DNA from: an uncultured Gammaproteobacteria bacterium
Lineage (GTDB): Bacteria > Pseudomonadota > Gammaproteobacteria > Ga0077536
Length of the DNA stretch: 64,000 nucleotides
Reading direction: 5' to 3'
Assembly: GCA_938075585.1 (NCBI GenBank)
Contig: CALJHG010000004.1
Coordinates: 9,311 to 73,310, forward strand
Shown here piece by piece: positions 16,419-48,027 of this stretch. The stretch's first letter is position 1; every line of letters starts with the position of its first letter. The notes under the pieces were generated by a model that saw nothing but the letters and a program-made list of their open reading frames with translations, searched no databases and was not told the origin of the DNA. The translations under genes were made by a program, and so were the position numbers.

Positions 16419-17759
16419 TTAAGAAGCTTTAGTGAGTTTAAATACTATCGGGGACAAAAGTAATAATGCTATGAGATTTGGAAGAGCCATAAGTCCGTTA
16501 AAAATATCTGCGATAGCCCAAATTATTTCCAGTTTTACCATGGCACCAATCAATATTGCTATGATCCAAAGGGTTCGGTAGGTGAAAATAATACGACTAC
16601 CAAACAAATACTCCGCACAGCGCTCCCCATAATAACTCCAGCCGATTATTGTTGTGAAGGCAAAGACCGCGAGACATACGCTGATTAATAGGCCACCAAG
16701 CGGGCCTATGCCAGTCGTAAAGGCAAGAGCGCTAAGCGACGCCCCCTGCTCGGCGCTATCCCATGTTCCTGTCATTATTATCACGAACGCTGTTAAAGAG
16801 CAGACGCAGATGGTATCTATAAAAGTCCCTAACATGGCTATTTTACCTTGTTTTGTCGGATTGTTAGTACTTGCCGCAGCGTGAGCGATAGCAGCGCTAC
16901 CCAGACCTGCCTCGTTCGAAAAGATTCCTCTTGCGAATCCCCAGCGCATCGCTAGCCATATGGATACACCCATACCTGACTCTGTCTCAAAAGCGCTCTC
17001 GATAATTAGGCGTATCGCTCCAGGCAGTGCGGTTATATTACTTACGATAATAAAAATTGAAAAAGAAATAAAAACTAAAGCCATCAGGGGTACCACCATG
17101 CCTGCGAAGGTCGCGATTCTTTTTATACCGCCAATGATTACGATCCCAGTGAGTGTTGCTATAAACAGACCCGTCAACCATTTATCTATTGCAAAGCTCG
17201 AATGCATGACATCTGCTACGGAGTTGGATTGCACCGTATTTCCTATTCCAAAGGCGGCTATCATCCCAAAAAAAGCAAATAATATTGCCAGCCAATGCCA
17301 CTCTGGTCCTAGTCCTTTTTGAATATAATACATGGGACCGCCCATATATCGTCCTGCACTGTTAATCTCTCTGTAGTGGACGGCTAATACCGCTTCTGCA
17401 TATTTGGTTGCCATACCAAATAGTGCAATAACCCACATCCAAAAGACTGCACCAGGCCCACCGAAATGAATCGCGGTCGCTACTCCGGCAATATTTCCGG
17501 TCCCAATTGTTGCAGAGAGTGCGGTCATTAGAGCGTTAAATGGTGAAATATCACCGTTTTGTCCACCAGTTTTCTCTCTACTTTTCGCTAGAAGTCTAAA
17601 ACTTGAACGCAACTGCAACCAAGGCATGAACTTCAGGCCAACCGAAAGGTAAACTGCAACGATCGCGAGTAATGGAATTAGGAGGTATTCGCCCCAAACT
17701 AGGTGACTTATTTTAGTTAGTACACTTTCAGCGATTGAACTGAAACTAACAGTTTCCAC
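16419..17759 (-). CDS. alanine/glycine:cation symporter (AGCS family)
   Basis: 446-aa polytopic membrane protein. GDISPFNALMTALSATIGTGNIAG is the AGCS family signature region. Confidence 0.85.
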   Translation of the reverse strand: METVSFSSIAESVLTKISHLVWGEYLLIPLLAIVAVYLSVGLKFMPWLQLRSSFRLLAKSREKTGGQNGDISPFNALMTALSATIGTGNIAGVATAIHFGGPGAVFWMWVIALFGMATKYAEAVLAVHYREINSAGRYMGGPMYYIQKGLGPEWHWLAILFAFFGMIAAFGIGNTVQSNSVADVMHSSFAIDKWLTGLFIATLTGIVIIGGIKRIATFAGMVVPLMALVFISFSIFIIVSNITALPGAIRLIIESAFETESGMGVSIWLAMRWGFARGIFSNEAGLGSAAIAHAAASTNNPTKQGKIAMLGTFIDTICVCSLTAFVIIMTGTWDSAEQGASLSALAFTTGIGPLGGLLISVCLAVFAFTTIIGWSYYGERCAEYLFGSRIIFTYRTLWIIAILIGAMVKLEIIWAIADIFNGLMALPNLIALLLLSPIVFKLTKAS

Positions 17760-18346
17760 TATAATATTTTCCCATGTTGTTTTTTTATTATAAGTTCATT
17801 GCCGGTTTGCGCGAATGTTAGGCGCTCTAGGAAGCTCATGCCGAGTAGAGCATGCATGTCACCCAATGAAGGCACTATTACCGCTCGGACATCATGTTCC
17901 TCTATTTGCCCTAATTGTAGACTTATTATATTTGCTGACCAGCCTTTTGTTTGGCCGTTAGCTGTCATGATAGTGACCTTTCTTTTTTTCTTTATACCCG
18001 CTTTTATCGCAAGTTTTTCAGAAACGACTACATCAGTGGCGCCAGTATCCACCAAAAACTGGACTAATTGGCCGTTTATTTTCCCCCTCGCTATGTAGTG
18101 GCCGGAGCGACTTTTCAAGAGACGAACTCCAATGTCTCCAGTTTTAGTTTCAAATGCACTCGTCTCGTGGAACGTGTTTTTTTTGTGAGTAGAATACTGC
18201 GAAAATAACCAAGTTAGCATACCTAACAATAGTGCGAAGGCCGCTAGGTACATTATAAATCCGAACCGTTGTGTCGACATAGTGTGATTATAAAACGAAT
18301 TGACGCCAGCATGTTTTTTTTGTTCGTCAAATGTTAGTCTAAACAA
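17759..18346 (-). CDS. retropepsin-like aspartic protease, membrane-anchored (TIGR02281 type)
   Basis: N-terminal transmembrane helix followed by FLVDTGATDVVVS (D-T/S-G-A catalytic motif). Overlaps the symporter stop by 1 nt. Confidence 0.75.
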   Translation of the reverse strand: MFRLTFDEQKKHAGVNSFYNHTMSTQRFGFIMYLAAFALLLGMLTWLFSQYSTHKKNTFHETSAFETKTGDIGVRLLKSRSGHYIARGKINGQLVQFLVDTGATDVVVSEKLAIKAGIKKKRKVTIMTANGQTKGWSANIISLQLGQIEEHDVRAVIVPSLGDMHALLGMSFLERLTFAQTGNELIIKKQHGKIL

Positions 18347-18413: not shown

Positions 18414-19400
18414 GTGAGTAATATCTCGAACGAAAAAACTAAAAACACAGAGTTCGAACCAACTCGAGCGATACGCAGTCTGACGGAAGATGTGGAAAAC
18501 AGTATGTTAGACGCGCCTCGGTCTCTACCAGCGAAGTATTTTTATGATGAGCGAGGCTCATTGTTATTCGATAAAATATGCGACTCTCCAGAGTACTATC
18601 CTACTCGTATAGAAAGCGCCCTTTTAAAGGAGGTCGCTAAAGATGTGATAAACACATCTCGTCCTGACCATATTTTGGAGTTAGGAAGCGGCACCTCGAG
18701 GAAGACGAGACACCTTTTCGACGCTTGCTCTTTATCCCAGTGCTTTCCAGAATATATCGCGGTCGACGTTTGTGACGAAATACTAGTTGAAAGCAAAAAC
18801 GCTTTGGAAAAAGAATATGGATGGTTGAAAGTAAATACAGTAGTTGGAGATTACACGGGTGGGTTGGGAAACCTGCCTAGGAGTCACGCTAAAAATTTAT
18901 TCGTGTTTCTGGGCGGGACTATCGGTAATTTTAGTCCCAAAGAGGCGAATATATTTTTGTCCGAGATTAAAGAGGTTATGACTCCGCAGGATTTACTATT
19001 AATCGGTGCTGACAGAGTGAAAGAGCCGGATATATTGCATGCTGCCTATAACGATGATGAGGGAATTACGGCTGAGTTTAATCTAAATTTGTTAGAAGTA
19101 CTAAATCGAGAACTCGATGCTGATTTTAATGTCTCTAAGTTTGAGCACTATGCATATTACAATCCTTTACTATCGCAGATTGAAATGCATCTCGTGTCCA
19201 TGCGCGAACAGAAGATTCGAATGAAGAATCTCGATAAAGAGGTGCATTTTTTAGAGGGAGATCATATTCTTACCGAGATAAGCCGAAAGTTCACCAGAGC
19301 TGAACTTGAAAATCTTCTGATTAATGCCGGTTTTGAAATTGAAAAGCATTACGAGGCAGAAGAGATGAAATTTTCGCTTGTCCTAGCTACTACTGACTAG
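18414..19400 (+). CDS. EgtD-family SAM-dependent N-methyltransferase (histidine/aromatic amino-acid betaine synthase-like)
   Basis: Strong EgtD-specific motifs: KYFYDERGSLLFDKICDSPEYYPTRIE, ELGSGTSRKTRHL, FLGGTIGNF, AYNDDEGITAEFNLNLL, and FEHYAYYNP...IEMHLVS. Confidence 0.8.
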   Translation: MSNISNEKTKNTEFEPTRAIRSLTEDVENSMLDAPRSLPAKYFYDERGSLLFDKICDSPEYYPTRIESALLKEVAKDVINTSRPDHILELGSGTSRKTRHLFDACSLSQCFPEYIAVDVCDEILVESKNALEKEYGWLKVNTVVGDYTGGLGNLPRSHAKNLFVFLGGTIGNFSPKEANIFLSEIKEVMTPQDLLLIGADRVKEPDILHAAYNDDEGITAEFNLNLLEVLNRELDADFNVSKFEHYAYYNPLLSQIEMHLVSMREQKIRMKNLDKEVHFLEGDHILTEISRKFTRAELENLLINAGFEIEKHYEAEEMKFSLVLATTD

Positions 19401-21485: not shown

Positions 21486-21562
<77 letters not shown>

Positions 21563-21679
21563 ACTTGAGTGGTTAAAAAGTCATGATTTTAAACATTTAG
21601 GCATTTGCAAGTTCAATTGCTTACGCTTAATGTGGTGATCGGGAGTTTTATAACGTTTCCGCGCAACGGTTGGATTAAT

Positions 21680-21756
21680 GCGCCTGTAGCTCATTTGGAT
21701 AGAGCATCGGCCTTCTAAGCCGAGGGTAGCAGGTTCGAATCCTGCCAGGCGTGCCA
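21680..21756 (+). tRNA. tRNA-Arg (anticodon TCT)
   Basis: Anticodon loop cttctaa and GGTTCGAATCC T-loop. Closely resembles E. coli argU. Confidence 0.9.
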
Positions 21757-21817
21757 GTTTGTGGAACGGTTGTATTAGCTAAATGGTTGTCGAGAATGAG
21801 AAATTATAGATAACAAT

Positions 21818-21894
21818 GGTGGGCGTAGCTCAGCTGGTAGAGCACGGGATTGTGATTCCTGAGGTCGTGGGTTCGAACCCCATCGTCCACCCCA
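21818..21894 (+). tRNA. tRNA-His (anticodon GTG)
   Basis: Near-identical to E. coli hisR, including the extra 5' G(-1): GGTGG..GGATTGTGATTCC..GGTTCGAA..CCACCCCA. Confidence 0.95.
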
Positions 21895-21950
21895 ATCTAT
21901 TGCGATAACTAGTTGCTATATACCCCTATGGGGTGGTAAATTTTTTTAAC

Positions 21951-22026
<76 letters not shown>

Positions 22027-22099
22027 AATTTTCAAGGCTGAGCGAATAATTTTGGTTATTCTTTCTTCTTCCGAAAAATCCCCGGTTAGTACTTTGAGG

Positions 22100-22810
22100 A
22101 TGGACTCTGACTCTCCTTATGTTTTTGTTTGCGATCATGCTGGTTGGCAGGTGCCTGCTAGCCTAGAAGGGCTTGGTTTAACCAAGAGAGATTTGAAGCG
22201 CCATATAGGCTGGGACATTGGCGCTCTCGCAGTGGCTAGGAAGCTTTCTAATATCTTAAGCGCGCCTTTAATTTGGCAAAATTATTCTCGCTTGGTTATC
22301 GATTGTAATCGAGTACTGGATCACCCGGGACTGATTGCGGTTGAAAGCGACAGAACAATCATTCCTGGAAACATGAATGTCACCAAGGATGGTATCCGCA
22401 GCAGGATTCGCGAAGTGTATCAACCGTATCACGGGACGATTAAAAAACTACTAGATGCGAGAAAGTCGAGAAGTACGCCCACTATTCTCGTGTCAATTCA
22501 TAGTTTCACTCCGGTATTCCGTGGAATCAAAAGAGCGTGTGAACTCGGAGTTTTGTTTGGTTCGGATGCGCGATACGCACGTACGTTCTTAAACAGTACC
22601 AAAGCCAATTTTGATTTTTTAGTAATGGCGAACGAACCATATAGGGTAGATGAAAAAGATTGTACCATTCCTATGCATGCTATAATTAGAGGAAATCTGA
22701 ACGTACTTTTAGAGATCCGACAAGATTTAATTGTGAGTGGTGCGCAGCAGGAACTTTGGGTGAGTGGTTTAGCCGGAGCGCTAGAGGATGCTACGTCACA
22801 AATTTTGTGA
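22100..22810 (+). CDS. N-formylglutamate amidohydrolase-family protein
   Basis: YVFVCDHAGWQVP and IHSFTPVF motifs of PF05013. The ORF track start at 22016 lies inside tRNA-Lys. The ATG at 22100 (MDSDSPYVFVCDHAG) is the plausible start. Confidence 0.7.
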   Translation: MDSDSPYVFVCDHAGWQVPASLEGLGLTKRDLKRHIGWDIGALAVARKLSNILSAPLIWQNYSRLVIDCNRVLDHPGLIAVESDRTIIPGNMNVTKDGIRSRIREVYQPYHGTIKKLLDARKSRSTPTILVSIHSFTPVFRGIKRACELGVLFGSDARYARTFLNSTKANFDFLVMANEPYRVDEKDCTIPMHAIIRGNLNVLLEIRQDLIVSGAQQELWVSGLAGALEDATSQIL

Positions 22811-22871: not shown

Positions 22872-24056
22872 CTAGGTCTTAGGATCATAACCTGCTTCAT
22901 TGGGGAACCCTTTAATATCAGGGGCAGGGTAGTAACGTTTCTCGCCCAAGGCATCCACACGATCAAAAAAATCTTGATCTGCGGCTAGTCCCATTACTTC
23001 GCCAATATCCCGAAGGTTCATTGCTTGTCGAAACATGTTCCAGGAGTCTGGGTGTAGGTTTATCGCAGTGGCTAAAAACTTATCGCCTTCCGCTTCCTTC
23101 CCATTCAGACGTAAGTAAACGCCGAGGTGGAAGTTGGCATGAGCTAAGGCTATTGATTTAGATGGCAATTGCATGTGTCGCTTGGCAGCATCGGTATCAT
23201 ACGCATTTTCTGCGATAGCCCCATTTATCGCCCAATCTTTTACAGCATCCAGATAAGTTGTTTGCGCTCTTGAAGCCAAATCTAGCGCCTCGTCCGTTTG
23301 AGAGAAGTCTTGTCTGTTCATAGAACGAAATGCATCGTGAGATCCCGCGGTCTCACTCGGTCTTACTATTTTCCCGAATTCATCAATCCATACCGCATTA
23401 GGAACATTTACCATATTGTAGAGATCTGCCACCTGATGGGTTTGATCAATAAGACAAAGATAGCTCGGGTTAGCTTCGTCTATGAATTCTCGCGCTGTTT
23501 CCGCACCTCTGCTTTCTTGAGCGACTGCGATAATTAGAAAGTCATCGTTTCCAACTTCATCATACATAGCTTGCCACACGGGCAAGTCATGTCTGCATCC
23601 TCACCAGGACGACCAGGTTGTTAAAAAGATACGTTTTCCCCGATAGTCCGAAAGTGAGTGAAACTCTCCATCGAGATCTGGCAATCTGAAGTCCGGCGCC
23701 TCGAGAGAAGTGAGTTTTTCTGATCGCTCTTTATATCCTGCTCCCAGCAACCATGTTTCTCTCGTTTCGTCATATAAGACAGGTTTCTCCATTAAGCGCC
23801 AAAATTGCGACACATTTAGATGCTTATTCTCTAGGAACCCTGTTTCGGTATCACTCGGATATGGGATACATTTCTCGTCTTGACACAAGCCTTCAGGCTT
23901 CATAGTCCAACCGAGCTTTTGCTCAACATCTTTCCTAGTTAACCAAAGATCGTTATCTTTTATTTGCGCGTTAACAGCTAGAGTTTGATGTTCGTGAATA
24001 ACTGTGACCATTTTCATATCCTTGGGCGTGATAATTGGGTTAACTGTACTCTTCAT
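22872..24056 (-). CDS. candidate selenoprotein: AhpC/TSA-redoxin family thiol-disulfide oxidoreductase with N- and C-terminal extra domains, in-frame TGA (Sec) at 23601-23603
   Basis: ORFs 23601..24056 and 22872..23585 are in the same frame, separated only by a TGA. The junction reads ...APDFRLPDLDGEFHSLSDYRGKRIFLTTWSSW-[TGA]-GCRHDLPVWQAMYDEVGNDDFLIIAVAQE... This is one continuous redoxin domain, with TGA at the first Cys of the WCxxC-type motif. A SECIS-like hairpin sits 14 nt downstream. Confidence 0.6.
23565..23591 (-). promoter_or_regulatory. SECIS-like mRNA stem-loop downstream of in-frame UGA
   Basis: On the mRNA, UGA is followed by ggaugcaga, then cauga-CUUGCC-CGUGU-GGCAAG-cuaug. This is a perfect 6-bp upper stem with a 5-nt loop containing GU, a 3-4 bp lower stem with one mismatch, and an apical loop about 20-25 nt after UGA. 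Core at 23570..23586. Confidence 0.45.
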
Positions 24057-24120: not shown

Positions 24121-25488
24121 CTAACCGTTATTTTTGTCTGACACCAAATCAATATCTTCATCAAGTGGCACCTTTGCTCTTAATTGTAAGCGTGCATCGT
24201 CATCGCCTATTTGTATGTGTTCCATATTCGCCATCTCGCTTTTTGTTTTAGTCGATAGGGTCGCGAATCTTTGGACCTTTCCTGCTAATCCTTGATTTCC
24301 AATCAGGGCTGTTCTCAAACTATTCCAATGATTCCCCACAGCCTTTAACGAATTGCCAAGCTTATCCGTTCGATTACTGACTTCACAAACAGCGTTATAT
24401 ATTTCCATGGCTTTGTCGCCGAGTTCGGTGGCATGGTTACTTGTGCTGTATAGAGTCCATACAGCTGAAATGACCCGCAGAATAGGGATCAAAGTGGTAT
24501 GCGATACTAATATGACATTTTTTTCGTATCCATAGCTAAATAGTCCCCTGTCATGTTTGAGTGCTTCAATGAATGCTGGTTCAATGGGCATAAATAGGAA
24601 GGTGAAATCAGGACTTTGGACATCCGCTATACTCGGGTAATCCTTTCTGGACAGATCGTCTATATACTTTTTCACCGCAGCCACATGAGCAGTCATTGCA
24701 ACCATGGTCTCTTCATCGGTTTTTGCTGAAATAGCCCGATCATAGTCGAGTAGGGTCATTTTACTATCTATGATAAATCCCCCACCATTTGGCAGGTAAA
24801 TAATAAAGTCGGTTTGCTTCTTTGCTCCTCCGTCGGAGCTGAAGCTGTCTTGTTTGGTATAGTGGGTGACCTCGACTAACCCACTCATTTGCAAAGTCCT
24901 TTCGAGCTGGGCCTCGCCCCACGCTCCTCGATATTGGGAGTTACCTTTTAGAGCAGCGGTTAAATTTTTTGCATCTTCGCTCAGCGCTGAACCTACTTCA
25001 GCATACTTTTTTATCTCCGAAACCAAATTAGTATTTCCCTTAATCGCTTCAGTGTGTACTTCATTGACTCTTTTTTGGAAGCTCTCAATTTGATCTTTGA
25101 AAGGTCTGAGCATTGCATTCAGTGTGGACTGGCTAGAATCTGAAAAGCTTTTTCCTTTTTCCTCAAAAATTTTGTTTGCTAAATTCTCGAACTCTTTTTT
25201 AAGACGAGCCTCAGATTGCTCGAGCAACTGGACTTTATCTTCGTTGGCTTTCTGTTTTTCCTCTATTTGCGTTTGAAGGCGGATATTTTCCTGACTGAGA
25301 GCCTTATTTTCTAAAATATAATTATCTATTTCCGAGTGTAGCCGAGCTATCTCTTTCACTAGTTCATCATGCTTTTGAAGGTTAGCATCCATCCCTAAAA
25401 CTTGGGCCCTCCGGATCAATATGTATCCGACTATTGCCAATAGGCCCATAGCGCCGAGAAGAATGAACTCGATTACCGTTTCTTCCAT
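24121..25488 (-). CDS. rmuC: DNA recombination protein RmuC
   Basis: N-terminal transmembrane helix, long coiled-coil, and a C-terminal RmuC nuclease-like domain (FLFMPIEPAFIEAL). 455 aa. Confidence 0.85.
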   Translation of the reverse strand: MEETVIEFILLGAMGLLAIVGYILIRRAQVLGMDANLQKHDELVKEIARLHSEIDNYILENKALSQENIRLQTQIEEKQKANEDKVQLLEQSEARLKKEFENLANKIFEEKGKSFSDSSQSTLNAMLRPFKDQIESFQKRVNEVHTEAIKGNTNLVSEIKKYAEVGSALSEDAKNLTAALKGNSQYRGAWGEAQLERTLQMSGLVEVTHYTKQDSFSSDGGAKKQTDFIIYLPNGGGFIIDSKMTLLDYDRAISAKTDEETMVAMTAHVAAVKKYIDDLSRKDYPSIADVQSPDFTFLFMPIEPAFIEALKHDRGLFSYGYEKNVILVSHTTLIPILRVISAVWTLYSTSNHATELGDKAMEIYNAVCEVSNRTDKLGNSLKAVGNHWNSLRTALIGNQGLAGKVQRFATLSTKTKSEMANMEHIQIGDDDARLQLRAKVPLDEDIDLVSDKNNG

Positions 25489-25531: not shown

Positions 25532-26593
25532 TTATGCTATCGCTTGTAGAACCATATTGATAGGTGTCTCGGCAACTCTATTGACGCTAGAAAACCCTGC
25601 TTCTCGAAGTACGTCAGCAATACGTTTTTCGCCAGCTTGCGCCCCTAGACAGAGGCCCACTTCCTGCGAGCGAGACACGGGGACGCAAATGGTCGTGGAG
25701 AAACCGTACATTATTCCTGAAAAAAGATTCATATTCTCTTTTAGACTATCAGCCGCGTTTGGTTCAACTACCATAAACGTGCCTCCTGGCTTCAGCGATT
25801 TTTTTATGTGCCTTGCTGCGCCCACCGGATCACCCATGTCATGCAGTGCATCGAAGATACAGACCAAATCGTAATCTTTTCCTGGAAATTCTTTCGCGAG
25901 AACTTGCTCAAATAGGACGTTTGTTATTCCTTTTTCCTTGGCTTCGTTTCGAGCAGACTCTATGGAAGCTCCATGGAAATCAAATCCGTGAATTTGTGAC
26001 AGCGGGTATGCCTCGCCCATCAATAATGATGAGGCGCCTAATCCACAGCCTATGTCGGCAACTTTCCCACCTGATTTGAGAGTAGGTTCCACGCCCTTCA
26101 GCGAAGGTATCCATTCGGAGGTGAGAGAGGATGCGTAGCCTGGGCGGAAGAATCTATCCGTCCCGCAAAAACAGCAAGAATGGTGATCTTCCCAAGGCCG
26201 GCCCTCACCTGATTTGAATATGTCGATTGCCGTATCGTGAGTCGCATATTGAGCAACTACAGCTTGAAAAAATCCTTGCATACAGGTGGGTTCGCCTTCT
26301 CGAGAAAAAATGGCCGCTTGTTCGGGAGTCAAATCAAAAGTGTCTGCTTCTGCGTTATATTCGATGTAACCCATGGCCGCATTTGACGATAACCATTCCC
26401 TAAGATAGCGGGCATCGACATCAGTTTTTTTCGCTAACGCCTCGTGCTTACAGGGCCCTAGTTCCTCCATAGCCCGGTAGATACCAGTCTGATCACCTAT
26501 GTAAGCCATAAGCAATCCGACAGCGCCAGCGGCATTTCCCATGACGCGACCTTGCAATTCTTGAAGTTTTTTTTCGTTGTATGATGGTGTCAT
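25532..26593 (-). CDS. class I SAM-dependent methyltransferase with an N-terminal winged-helix/dimerisation domain
   Basis: VADIGCGLGASS SAM-binding motif I and an acidic motif II (CIFDALHDM). Confidence 0.7.
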   Translation of the reverse strand: MTPSYNEKKLQELQGRVMGNAAGAVGLLMAYIGDQTGIYRAMEELGPCKHEALAKKTDVDARYLREWLSSNAAMGYIEYNAEADTFDLTPEQAAIFSREGEPTCMQGFFQAVVAQYATHDTAIDIFKSGEGRPWEDHHSCCFCGTDRFFRPGYASSLTSEWIPSLKGVEPTLKSGGKVADIGCGLGASSLLMGEAYPLSQIHGFDFHGASIESARNEAKEKGITNVLFEQVLAKEFPGKDYDLVCIFDALHDMGDPVGAARHIKKSLKPGGTFMVVEPNAADSLKENMNLFSGIMYGFSTTICVPVSRSQEVGLCLGAQAGEKRIADVLREAGFSSVNRVAETPINMVLQAIA

Positions 26594-26847: not shown

Positions 26848-26933
<86 letters not shown>

Positions 26934-45863: not shown

Positions 45864-46391
45864 CTACTTTTTACGCCTCTCTACATTCAGAGCGACTAAA
45901 TTGGATTCTATATCTTTCCCAGCGTTCATTAGGTTAATTTTTTTATCAATTTTCACGAGTCTGCCATCTTTACCAATATAAAAAGTCCATCTTTTGGCAA
46001 ACCCAATCACGGACTTAACCCCATACCGGTTTGCAACTAGGCCACCAGGGTCACTTAATATAGGGAAATCGGCGTTATTTTTTCTAGCGAACTTTGTATT
46101 TGTTTCATGATCGTCGGTACTTGCCATAAAGTATGCCACTTCGAAATCTTTTAGTATTGGACCACTCTCACGGAGGGATTTACATTCGATTGTTCAGCCT
46201 CCGGTAAACGCTTTCGGAAACCAGGCGATAACCACTGCGGAACCTATGTAGTCACTTAGCCTATGAGTTTTGCCATCCGAACCGATCATTTCAAAGTTTG
46301 GGGCGAAATCACCGACAGCAACGGTATCTTCTGCCCACGTCGGGTTTGTAATATTTAGGGCCGCTAAAACAAAGGCGATTATGTTTTTCAA
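45864..46391 (-). CDS. candidate selenoprotein: periplasmic peroxiredoxin (Prx/Bcp-like) with in-frame TGA (Sec) at 46194-46196 in place of the peroxidatic Cys
   Basis: ORFs 46194..46391 and 45864..46139 are in one frame. The junction reads ...GDFAPNFEMIGSDGKTHRLSDYIGSAVVIAWFPKAFTGG-[TGA]-TIECKSLRESGPILKDFEVAYFMASTDDHETNTKFARKNNADFPILSDP... The universal Prx PxxxTxxC motif reads PKAFTGG-U, with a resolving Cys four residues later. N-terminal signal peptide. SECIS-like hairpin 16 nt downstream. Confidence 0.6.
46162..46177 (-). promoter_or_regulatory. SECIS-like mRNA stem-loop downstream of in-frame UGA
   Basis: On the mRNA: UGA-acaaucgaauguaaau-CCCUC-CGUGA-GAG(U)GG. A 5-bp stem with one bulged U and a 5-nt loop CGUGA, 16 nt after UGA. 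The loop shares CGUG with the hairpin at 23570..23586. Confidence 0.4.
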
Positions 46392-46468: not shown

Positions 46469-47824
46469 TTAAGAACTGGGCTCTCTCATAGTAACCCATT
46501 CTTCAGCACTGGTCGGATGAATACCAATAGTACTATCAAACATAGCTTTTGTAGCACCAGCTTTTAAAGCGATTGCTAACCCTTGGATGCTCTCTCCTGC
46601 ATCGGGGCCCACCATGTGAGCTCCTATAACCTTATCGTTCGCTTTATTAACGACGAGTTTCATTAGTGTCTTTTCTGTATTTCCCGAAAGCGTATTTTTA
46701 AGCGCGCGAAAAGAAGATTTAAAAACACTAATTTCTGAAAAATTTTGTCTCGCAGATTCTTCGGTGTAGCCGACGCATGCGAGATTAGGCTGACTAAATA
46801 CCGCGCACGGAATGTTTTCATAGCTAACTGGACGACTGCGATCTTGATATAGGTGCGCGACTAGAGCCATCCCTTCTGCCAAAGCCACTGGCGTTAAATT
46901 GACTCGATTGGTTACATCGCCAATAGCGTAAATTGACTCGACATTCGTTTGATAATTGCTGTTGACTATAATGGCATTAGCGGCATCAGTTTCTACACCA
47001 CATGAGTCAAGTCCAAGATTTGAAGTGAGAGGGCTCCTGCCAGTCGCGTACATAGCTGCGTCTGTTTTGATCATCTGCCCATCTTTCAGTTTCACATGTA
47101 GTCCGTCAGCATTTTTCTCAATTGCGCTAATATCATTATCAAACTGGAGATTTACCCCTTTATTCCCCATTTCTTCCGATAAAAACACTCTCGCGTCTAG
47201 GTCGAATCCGCGTAGAAACATGGAACCACGATAAATTTGCGTAGTTTCGCAACCGAGCCCATTGAATATTCCAGCGAATTCTGTAGCAATATACCCGCCG
47301 CCAACTACTAAAACTTTTTTAGGAAGTTGTTTTAGGAAGAAAGCCTCATTAGAGCTAAATACATGCTCGTTCCCAGGGAACTGAGGTATAAATGGTTCAC
47401 CGCCCGTTGCTATCAGGATTCTATCTGCACTGTAGACGTGACCGCCTACCGAAACTTCATGAGGACCAACTATCGTAGCGTGGTCAAGAAGTATTTTTAC
47501 ACCAGAATTTTCCAGTAGCCTTTGGTAGATTTTATTGAGACGCTCGATCTCTATATTCTTATTTTCTACTAAGCGAGCCCAGTTGAAATTAGCTTCTTTT
47601 ATACCCCACCCATAACCCACTGTATCATCGAATTCCTCGCGCATATGGGCCGCATAAGAAAATAGCTTCTTAGGAATGCACCCAACATTGACGCAGGTCC
47701 CTCCGAGGCTGGCCTTTTCCGCAATAGCTACTTTAACACCCAAATCAGCTGCGAAGCGAGAAGCTCTGACTCCACCAGATCCGGCTCCAATGGTGAATAG
47801 ATCAAAGTCATATTTTTTTTTCAT
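46469..47824 (-). CDS. gor: glutathione-disulfide reductase
   Basis: FAD motif GAGSGG, redox-active disulfide GGTCVNVGCIPKK, and C-terminal IGIHPTSAEEWVTMR, matching E. coli Gor. Probable start MKKKYDFDLF at 47824. The ORF track extends to an upstream ATG at 47920. Confidence 0.85.
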   Translation of the reverse strand: MKKKYDFDLFTIGAGSGGVRASRFAADLGVKVAIAEKASLGGTCVNVGCIPKKLFSYAAHMREEFDDTVGYGWGIKEANFNWARLVENKNIEIERLNKIYQRLLENSGVKILLDHATIVGPHEVSVGGHVYSADRILIATGGEPFIPQFPGNEHVFSSNEAFFLKQLPKKVLVVGGGYIATEFAGIFNGLGCETTQIYRGSMFLRGFDLDARVFLSEEMGNKGVNLQFDNDISAIEKNADGLHVKLKDGQMIKTDAAMYATGRSPLTSNLGLDSCGVETDAANAIIVNSNYQTNVESIYAIGDVTNRVNLTPVALAEGMALVAHLYQDRSRPVSYENIPCAVFSQPNLACVGYTEESARQNFSEISVFKSSFRALKNTLSGNTEKTLMKLVVNKANDKVIGAHMVGPDAGESIQGLAIALKAGATKAMFDSTIGIHPTSAEEWVTMREPSS

Positions 47825-48027
47825 AATGAATGTGGTTCCTTCGACTAGAGCTGAAAAATAAAGGTGCGATATGTGAATGCAGTTTAAAGGGTCAAATATA
47901 TTATTATCAATTGTTTTCATCGAGACAAGAGGTGAGGCGGAGTAAGTGGCTTAGTATGTGCTTGCGATTTTTAAATTTTTTTACCTGTGCTAGGTTATAT
48001 AGATAAACTGTAACAATAGGGACTAAT

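Follow-up and report, generated by a model that had tools for sequence, protein, structure and literature searches.

Selenoproteins in which selenocysteine (Sec, U) stands in a U-G-C motif were catalogued in 2008 as the family 'Prx-like (UGC-containing)' (pfam00578, motif UGC), with 46 selenoprotein sequences from 15 Global Ocean Sampling (GOS) samples and 855 Cys homologues (Table 2 in Zhang and Gladyshev, 2008; PLoS Genet 4:e1000095, PMC2398784), and the supplement of that study displays reads with WSSWUGC and WASWUGC under the entry '#Prx-like UGC-containing'. A UGC-containing selenoprotein family is also listed in a 2026 review (PMC13188914), and the curated NCBI library of hidden Markov models (HMMs) holds the model NF041054.1, named WAxxUGC_long, 'ResA-like WAxxUGC motif-containing protein'. 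In this work, we characterized a locus in a stretch of 64 kb from an uncultured gammaproteobacterium (contig CALJHG010000004.1; hereafter the window, whose positions are used as coordinates throughout), where an internal TGA codon at 23601-23603 almost certainly encodes Sec in a three-domain protein with a thioredoxin fold. We conclude with high confidence that the gene at this locus is functional and that its product is a cytoplasmic selenoprotein with three domains, belonging to the family referred to as 'Prx-like (UGC-containing)', 'UGC-containing TlpA family' or WAxxUGC_long. The family, its motif, the Sec assignment and the protein sequence itself are not new, having been published in 2008 and being represented in the curated HMM library.

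The exchange of Sec and Cys at one position is a hallmark of selenoprotein families. As known from the Escherichia coli fdhF element and from published bacterial search models, the bacterial Sec insertion sequence (SECIS) lies shortly downstream of the UGA, within the open reading frame (ORF), and carries G/U in its apical loop. With respect to the protein, the nearest described relatives by fold are the thiol-disulfide oxidoreductases TlpA, ResA and DsbE (CcmG) (PDB 1jfu, 2f9s and 3gl3), whose TlpA-type thioredoxin fold and cis-Pro loop are present in the window protein. However, these relatives carry C-x-x-C, whereas the window protein has U-G-C, with Sec in place of Cys and one residue fewer; they are extracytoplasmic, whereas the window protein has neither a signal peptide nor a membrane anchor; and the window protein has extra N-terminal (C-x4-C) and C-terminal tetratricopeptide repeat (TPR)-like domains.

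An in-frame TGA conserved across related loci

The gene is located on the minus strand (22872..24056), where a frame from ATG 24056 to TAG 22874-22872 contains 394 sense codons, with no frameshift and with TGA 23601-23603, at residue 152, as its single internal stop. The first-pass annotation of this DNA had placed ORFs 23601..24056 (151 aa) and 22872..23585 in one frame separated by the TGA, with a read-through protein of about 390 aa; both statements were confirmed by reading the frame and counting its codons. The protein around this codon reads ...RGKRIFLTTWSSW-TGA-GCRHDLPVWQ... (over a longer extent, ...YRGKRIFLTTWSSW-TGA-GCRHDLPVWQAMYDEV...), which gives the motif T-W-S-S-W-U-G-C-R, and the codons that follow the TGA are GGA and TGC, the latter (23595..23597) encoding Cys154, the predicted resolving Cys of the U-G-C center, which is invariant in the alignment. 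Candidate starts are ATG 24056, with GAGGA at 24065-24061, and ATG 24011, corresponding to Met16, with AAGGA at a 7-nt spacing. The N-termini of the homologues, MVT(I/V)L, align with Met16 of the window frame, which by homology makes ATG 24011 more likely than ATG 24056 to be the true start.

A six-frame scan for TGA codons with long open flanks yielded 12 sites in the window, and only two of these, 23601-23603 and 46194-46196, are found in coding-looking sequence beside a redox motif. Since TGA closes 6 of the 34 long ORFs of the window, the code is standard and the genome does not use TGA as a sense codon. Comparison with two related loci, L001 and L002, gave ratios of nonsynonymous to synonymous substitution (dN/dS) of 0.25 and 0.13 for the part before the TGA, and of 0.09 and 0.08 for the part after it; these low values on either side indicate that both halves are kept as coding sequence by purifying selection.

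Related loci were obtained by scanning one genome per species (GTDB representatives), which returned 496 relatives; the analysis was carried out on the 80 best-matching loci. A protein search returned 994 homologues, and Cys-motif counts were taken from the full-length sequences among the best 120. At the 80 loci, tblastn matches extended over query residues ~9-394 across the TGA, and together with the NF041054 match they mark 22872..24056 as a complete selenoprotein gene. The homologous codon was TGA in 79 of the 80 loci, always in the context W-[A/S]-S-W-TGA-GGN-TGY-CGN, the lone exception being L023 with TGC, and the protein sequence was conserved on both sides of the codon. Taxa with the TGA include Gamma-, Alpha- and Betaproteobacteria, Rokubacteria/Methylomirabilota, Chloroflexota/Dehalococcoidia, SAR324, Verrucomicrobiia and Ca. 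Cybelea. Closest to the window is L001, an uncultured gammaproteobacterial metagenome-assembled genome with 92% identity, which is also syntenic with it. The first-pass annotation had raised split or truncated orthologues and a sequencing error at 23601-23603 as possible objections; the former is answered by the shared TGA with conserved protein to either side, and the latter is excluded by the recurrence of the codon.

The closest protein matches (60-90% identity) are all fragments of 220-238 residues starting with MPVWQ..., MWQ... or MYDEV... right after the TGA; therefore, these genes were split there by gene callers. Among the full-length matches (350-395 aa, 42-53% identity), 85 of 86 display W-[A/S]-S-W-C-G-C, and the remaining one, P0055, displays Trp at the Sec position (WASWWGC). 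The corresponding DNA (L088, JGI 3300061559 Ga0526514_059792) has TGA at that codon and the full SECIS-like hairpin described below, so that the Trp represents the reading of a gene caller; a full-length database entry with 'W' at this position can therefore conceal a Sec form. All non-TGA homologues have Cys at the Sec position, encoded by TGC or TGT in the nine that were examined in DNA. The first-pass annotation had left undecided between CxC and CxxC what the homologues would carry; the 85 genuine full-length Cys forms are all C-G-C, never CxxC.

A SECIS-like hairpin downstream of the TGA

On the minus strand, positions 23564..23592 can form a SECIS-like hairpin of the sequence ACAUG-A-CUUGCC-CGUGU-GGCAAG-C-UAUGU, composed of a lower stem (23592-23588 paired with 23568-23564), an upper stem (23586-23581, CUUGCC, paired with 23575-23570, GGCAAG) and an apical loop (23580-23576, CGUGU), and covering the codons D-L-P-V-W-Q. 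The minimum free energy of the 71-nt stretch was -20.3 kcal/mol (z -2.3). In its position, the hairpin fits the fdhF element and the published bacterial search models: the upper stem begins 15-16 nt past the UGA, or 15 nt when counted from the A of this codon, and the apical loop presents G-U approximately 20 nt downstream.

The 60 nt after the UGA were aligned without gaps for the window and 79 TGA loci (80 Sec forms). The upper stem identified by RNAalifold, columns 19-23 with 29-33, is paired in 80 of 80 Sec forms. Two pairs covary: among distinct sequences, pair 19:33 occurs as C-G (51), U-G (21) or U-A (5), and pair 18:34 as C-G (42), U-A (11) or U-G (5), being unpaired in 19; in the 5-nt loop, the G at column 25 is invariant and U occupies column 26 in at least 90%. 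The lower stem of the window hairpin is clade-specific. The window carries a double synonymous change, TTG (Leu)...CAA (Gln), relative to CTG...CAG in most genomes; this change is compensatory and preserves pair 19:33.

As the stem is made of the D-L-[P/S]-[V/G]-W-Q codons, conservation at the RNA level had to be distinguished from conservation of the protein, for which Sec and Cys forms were compared. All Sec forms (80/80) contain the peptide DL[PS][VG]WQ, as against 26/86 full-length Cys forms, the 86 including P0055, which is really a Sec form (Fisher p 9e-25). At the DNA level, all five core pairs are found in 80/80 Sec forms and in 3/9 Cys loci (Fisher p 1.4e-7), and Leu is encoded by YUG in every Sec form (80/80) against 5/9 of the Cys loci, the rest having CUA, CUC, CUU and CUC (Fisher p 5e-5). 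The constraint therefore tracks the TGA rather than the protein, as expected of a bacterial SECIS; the element would be made of the D-L-P/S-V-W-Q codons, the peptide being fixed in the Sec forms and relaxed in the Cys forms.

Domain architecture and family membership

The Pfam families AhpC-TSA (E 8e-16) and Redoxin (E 2.5e-12) match residues 119-232 of the window protein, crossing the TGA. The thioredoxin-fold (TlpA/ResA/DsbE-like) domain, residues 119-231 (23364..23702, minus strand, as are the other two domains), contains the U152-G-C154 center and the loop N217-V218-P219 (Pro219 at 23402-23400), whose conserved N-V-P aligned with the cis-Pro loop of PDB relatives in a profile search. It is preceded by a beta-rich domain of residues ~1-112 (23721..24056), with invariant Gly56, Cys58 (23885-23883) and Cys63 (23870-23868) in the motif KPEGLCxxxxCxP, and followed by a helical domain of residues ~250-394 (22875..23309), with one TPR-like repeat (~300-340) and the conserved motifs HPDSW and RVDALGxxRYYPxPD. 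This agrees with the layout proposed in the first-pass annotation, namely an N-terminal domain of about 110 aa, a redoxin domain running across the TGA and a helical C-terminal domain, as approximately 112 residues lie before and approximately 145, mostly helical, after the Pfam segment 119-231.

An AlphaFold model was obtained for P0005, the closest full-length Cys homologue (53% identity; 70-sequence alignment), with a predicted local distance difference test score of 93.9 and a predicted template modeling score of 0.91; the confident model suggests that the three domains would form one compact body. Its C-terminal segment is helical, profile positions 287-327 match consensus TPR proteins, and faint TPR matches from Pfam were found in homologues. 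For the N-terminal domain, modeled separately with window residues 1-116, no close solved relative was found. Regarding location, no signal peptide or membrane helix was detected, the highest Kyte-Doolittle 19-residue mean being 0.71 for the full length and 0.37 for the N-terminal part, which bears out the claim that a signal peptide is absent, and the homologues start straight at the soluble beta-rich domain.

In a comparison of the family profile with PDB sequences, 'WasWc.GCRadlP' was aligned on 'WATWCpPCREEIP' (3kcm) and 'WasWcG.CRadlp' on 'WASWCGPCRQSFP' (3gl3). This alignment places Sec152 on the N-terminal nucleophilic Cys and Cys154 on the resolving Cys, with one residue fewer between them. 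Accordingly, the earlier proposals that the TGA stands at the first Cys of WCxxC, and that U-G-C is one residue shorter than CxxC, hold in the comparison with TlpA/DsbE-type structures, where a one-residue gap is required.

Peroxiredoxins carry the active-site motif P-x-x-x-T/S-x-x-Cp. A peroxiredoxin reading was considered and rejected, since this motif is absent and TlpA-like structures ranked above peroxiredoxins in structural matches. In contrast to peroxiredoxins, the residue three positions before the Sec/Cys is Ala in 84/86 full-length homologues and Ser only in the WSSW clade, and no Pro is found four residues before the window Sec (L-T-T-W-S-S-W-U). The PrxQ and BCP models of NCBIfam reached E values of only ~1e-3 on the window protein. 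The AhpC/TSA-redoxin label of the first-pass annotation is thus borne out by the Pfam match, but it is a generic one, the fold being closest to TlpA/ResA/DsbE and not to peroxiredoxins. The protein would act in the manner of a TlpA/ResA-type thiol-disulfide oxidoreductase; with neither a CxxC, nor an extracytoplasmic location, nor a peroxiredoxin motif, it is nevertheless filed only under the UGC-containing selenoprotein family.

The top NCBIfam match was by far NF041054.1 (E 2.7e-79; residues 39-379 on profile positions 8-352 of 354), which has the same three-domain architecture; the window motif is W-S-S-W-U-G-C, with Ser where the name of the model has Ala. Two other gammaproteobacterial WSSW members scored 290 and 295 bits and five WASW members (Sec or Cys) 299-324, and since the scored WSSW members (267-295 bits) are divergent and fall just under the trusted cutoff, this clade is likely to stay split, unnamed or mis-annotated in automatic annotation. 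No difference of substance separates the window protein from the Prx-like (UGC-containing) family, which has the same U-G-C motif, pfam00578/cd02966, and both Sec and Cys forms. Furthermore, the read JCVI_READ_1095963304198, listed under '#Prx-like UGC-containing' in the supplement of Zhang and Gladyshev (2008; PMC2398784), is identical to window residues 89-382 (294/294) before its low-quality end. For a family on record since 2008 and covered by a curated NCBI model, the biological addition is small: the window contributes the gene at its full length, with the part for the N-terminal domain, the surroundings of this gene in the genome of an uncultured gammaproteobacterium, and a correct selenoprotein call at a gene split by automated callers, the Sec codon being recognizable from the raw sequence.

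Alternative explanations

Several observations weigh against a functional selenoprotein at this locus. tRNA scans of the 64-kb window and the naming of its 20 large ORFs, which are housekeeping or transport genes, revealed neither tRNA-Sec nor selA, selB or selD, and the regions flanking 60 related loci likewise yielded no Sec machinery; we infer both the Sec-decoding trait and Sec insertion in the source organism. The hairpin had no SECIS-type match in Rfam, at the gathering threshold or at E values up to 10. It also overlaps a conserved peptide, so that its conservation may be partly at the protein level, against which the Sec/Cys contrast argues with nine Cys loci. Moreover, the structure was predicted for P0005, a 53%-identical Cys homologue, and not for the window protein; the NF041054 score of the latter, 267 bits with Cys substituted for Sec, lies below the trusted cutoff of 300; and the literature yielded no experimental work on a member of the family, the catalytic cycle and the substrate being conjecture.

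A pseudogene, or an error of sequencing or assembly at the TGA, would leave no full-length protein, and would be in line with the splitting of the locus by gene callers, with close database matches that are all C-terminal fragments and with the Sec machinery not seen in the window. However, the same TGA recurs in 79 of 80 independent genomes, a GOS Sanger read from 2008 matches the window protein exactly, dN/dS does not exceed 0.25 in either half, and neither a frameshift nor an extra stop occurs in the 394 codons; we assign next to no probability to this explanation. Slightly less improbable, though still very much so, is that translation ends at the TGA, giving a 151-residue N-terminal protein and a separate 237-residue protein from TTG 23585. 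The break would then fall between beta-1 and helix alpha-1, in the active site of the thioredoxin fold; and although this genome does use TGA as an ordinary stop and the TTG lies 15 nt downstream of it, no Shine-Dalgarno sequence precedes that TTG, the bases there being those of the hairpin, the frame is conserved across the TGA at every locus, and the Cys homologues are single proteins of 360-390 aa.

The UGA might otherwise be decoded as Trp or Cys, by near-cognate read-through or under a reassigned code (table 4 or 25), which would be compatible with the Trp shown by P0055 and with Sec machinery not being demonstrated here. An altered genetic code was rejected, as TGA serves as a stop in window ORFs (6 of 34 long ones), and the only two coding-looking in-frame TGA codons both stand beside a redox motif. 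The Trp of P0055 was the choice of a gene caller at a TGA followed by the full hairpin; besides, all non-TGA homologues have Cys at the position, and a conserved downstream hairpin is required for Sec insertion, not for read-through, which renders this alternative exceedingly improbable. Altogether, the conserved TGA, the dN/dS values and the standard code exclude that the TGA is a sequencing error, that the gene is a pseudogene or that the code is reassigned, and Sec remains our reading of the codon.

Proposed redox chemistry

If the UGA at 23601-23603 is read as Sec, a SelB-type factor would recognize the hairpin inside the D-L-P-V-W-Q coding sequence. In the protein, Sec152-Gly-Cys154 would be located at the N-terminus of helix alpha-1 of the TlpA/ResA-like fold, where the Sec152 selenolate may attack an oxidized substrate (a disulfide, a sulfenate or similar), Cys154 would resolve the adduct to form an intramolecular selenenylsulfide, and thiol systems of the cell could then reduce the latter again, perhaps by way of the N-terminal domain with its invariant Cys58/Cys63 pair. 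For the window protein, this cycle is proposed here, along with substrate and reductant, by analogy with TlpA/ResA-type proteins and with other Sec/Cys pairs.

The same C/U-Gly-C spacing is found in engineered and peptide C-X-C catalysts, such as a Cys-Gly-Cys mimic of protein disulfide isomerase; however, these are peptides of synthetic origin, or else variants used to study oxidative folding in the endoplasmic reticulum, whereas the window protein is natural, cytoplasmic, bacterial and predicted to contain Sec. The disulfide of a Cys-Gly-Cys peptide has an E0' of -0.167 V, in comparison to -0.270 V for thioredoxin (bioRxiv 10.64898/2026.01.27.701630). Being one residue shorter than CxxC, U-G-C closes a smaller ring, and its couple is expected to be less reducing than that of thioredoxin; by this analogy, the U-G-C center is probably tuned to be less reducing. 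A more far-reaching idea, which we advance tentatively and consider rather unlikely, is that the U-G-C center, the Cys58-x4-Cys63 pair of the fold-orphan domain and the TPR-like domain, as a client-binding unit, form a cytoplasmic selenium redox relay with a chemistry unlike that of every characterized TlpA/ResA-type reductase. Were this the case, the relay could act, for example, as a high-potential oxidase/isomerase or as a sensor of a specific oxidant.

Gene neighborhood and other genes of the window

The selenoprotein gene is surrounded by rmuC (24121-25488, minus strand), a gene of the N-formylglutamate amidohydrolase family (22016-22810, plus strand), a tRNA cluster Pro-Arg-His-Lys (21486-22026, plus strand) and tRNA-Leu (26849-26933, plus strand). 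The L001 and L002 orthologues are flanked by the same tRNA arrangement, and the window is therefore syntenic with those uncultured gammaproteobacterial genomes. ORFs within ~4.5 kb of the gene were clustered for 84 loci: the two largest clusters were antisense shadow ORFs overlapping the gene itself, followed by a luciferase-like monooxygenase (16 loci), an acyl-CoA dehydrogenase (12) and an MFS transporter (10). No conserved partner gene was found among the 84 loci, synteny with the window was limited to L001-L005, and no cytochrome-c-maturation or Sco neighbors were present near the gene loci.

Two genes upstream of the selenoprotein gene, 25532-26593 (minus strand) encodes an S-adenosylmethionine-dependent methyltransferase with an Rv2258c-like winged helix-turn-helix N-terminal domain; it has weak NCBIfam matches (E ~1e-10, far below cutoff) to the methyltransferase part of ArsM-fusion selenoprotein models, probably reflecting generic similarity. 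Among Cys-form loci, L082, L083 and L086 (Myxococcota and others) have a divergently transcribed AraC-family regulator gene (AraC_N + HTH_18) immediately upstream, and L085 has an AraC-type DJ-1/PfpI-HTH_AraC gene just downstream; the Cys-form loci may thus have an AraC regulatory link that is absent from the Sec-form loci, including the window.

The other TGA codon beside a redox motif, 46194-46196, lies in a BCP/peroxiredoxin-like ORF (45864-46391, minus strand) with a hydrophobic N-terminus and the motif FPKAFTGG-U-TIECK, which is the peroxiredoxin already mentioned in the first-pass annotation. The ORF is located directly downstream of a glutathione-disulfide reductase gene (46469-47920, minus strand; TIGR01424, E 2e-181), and the 70 nt around and after its TGA fold no better than shuffled sequences (z +1.29). 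This second redoxin with TGA at a Cys position gives indirect support for the use of Sec by the organism.

Elsewhere in the window, the product of 18414-19400 (plus strand) matches EgtD, the enzyme of ergothioneine synthesis that acts as L-histidine N-alpha-methyltransferase, with 343 bits for TIGR03438, whose cutoff is 291, and 17759-18346 (minus strand) is a 195-aa ORF with a retroviral-type aspartyl protease domain (PF13975 gag-asp_proteas, E 2e-26) that adjoins an amino-acid carrier gene of the AgcS family (16419-17759).

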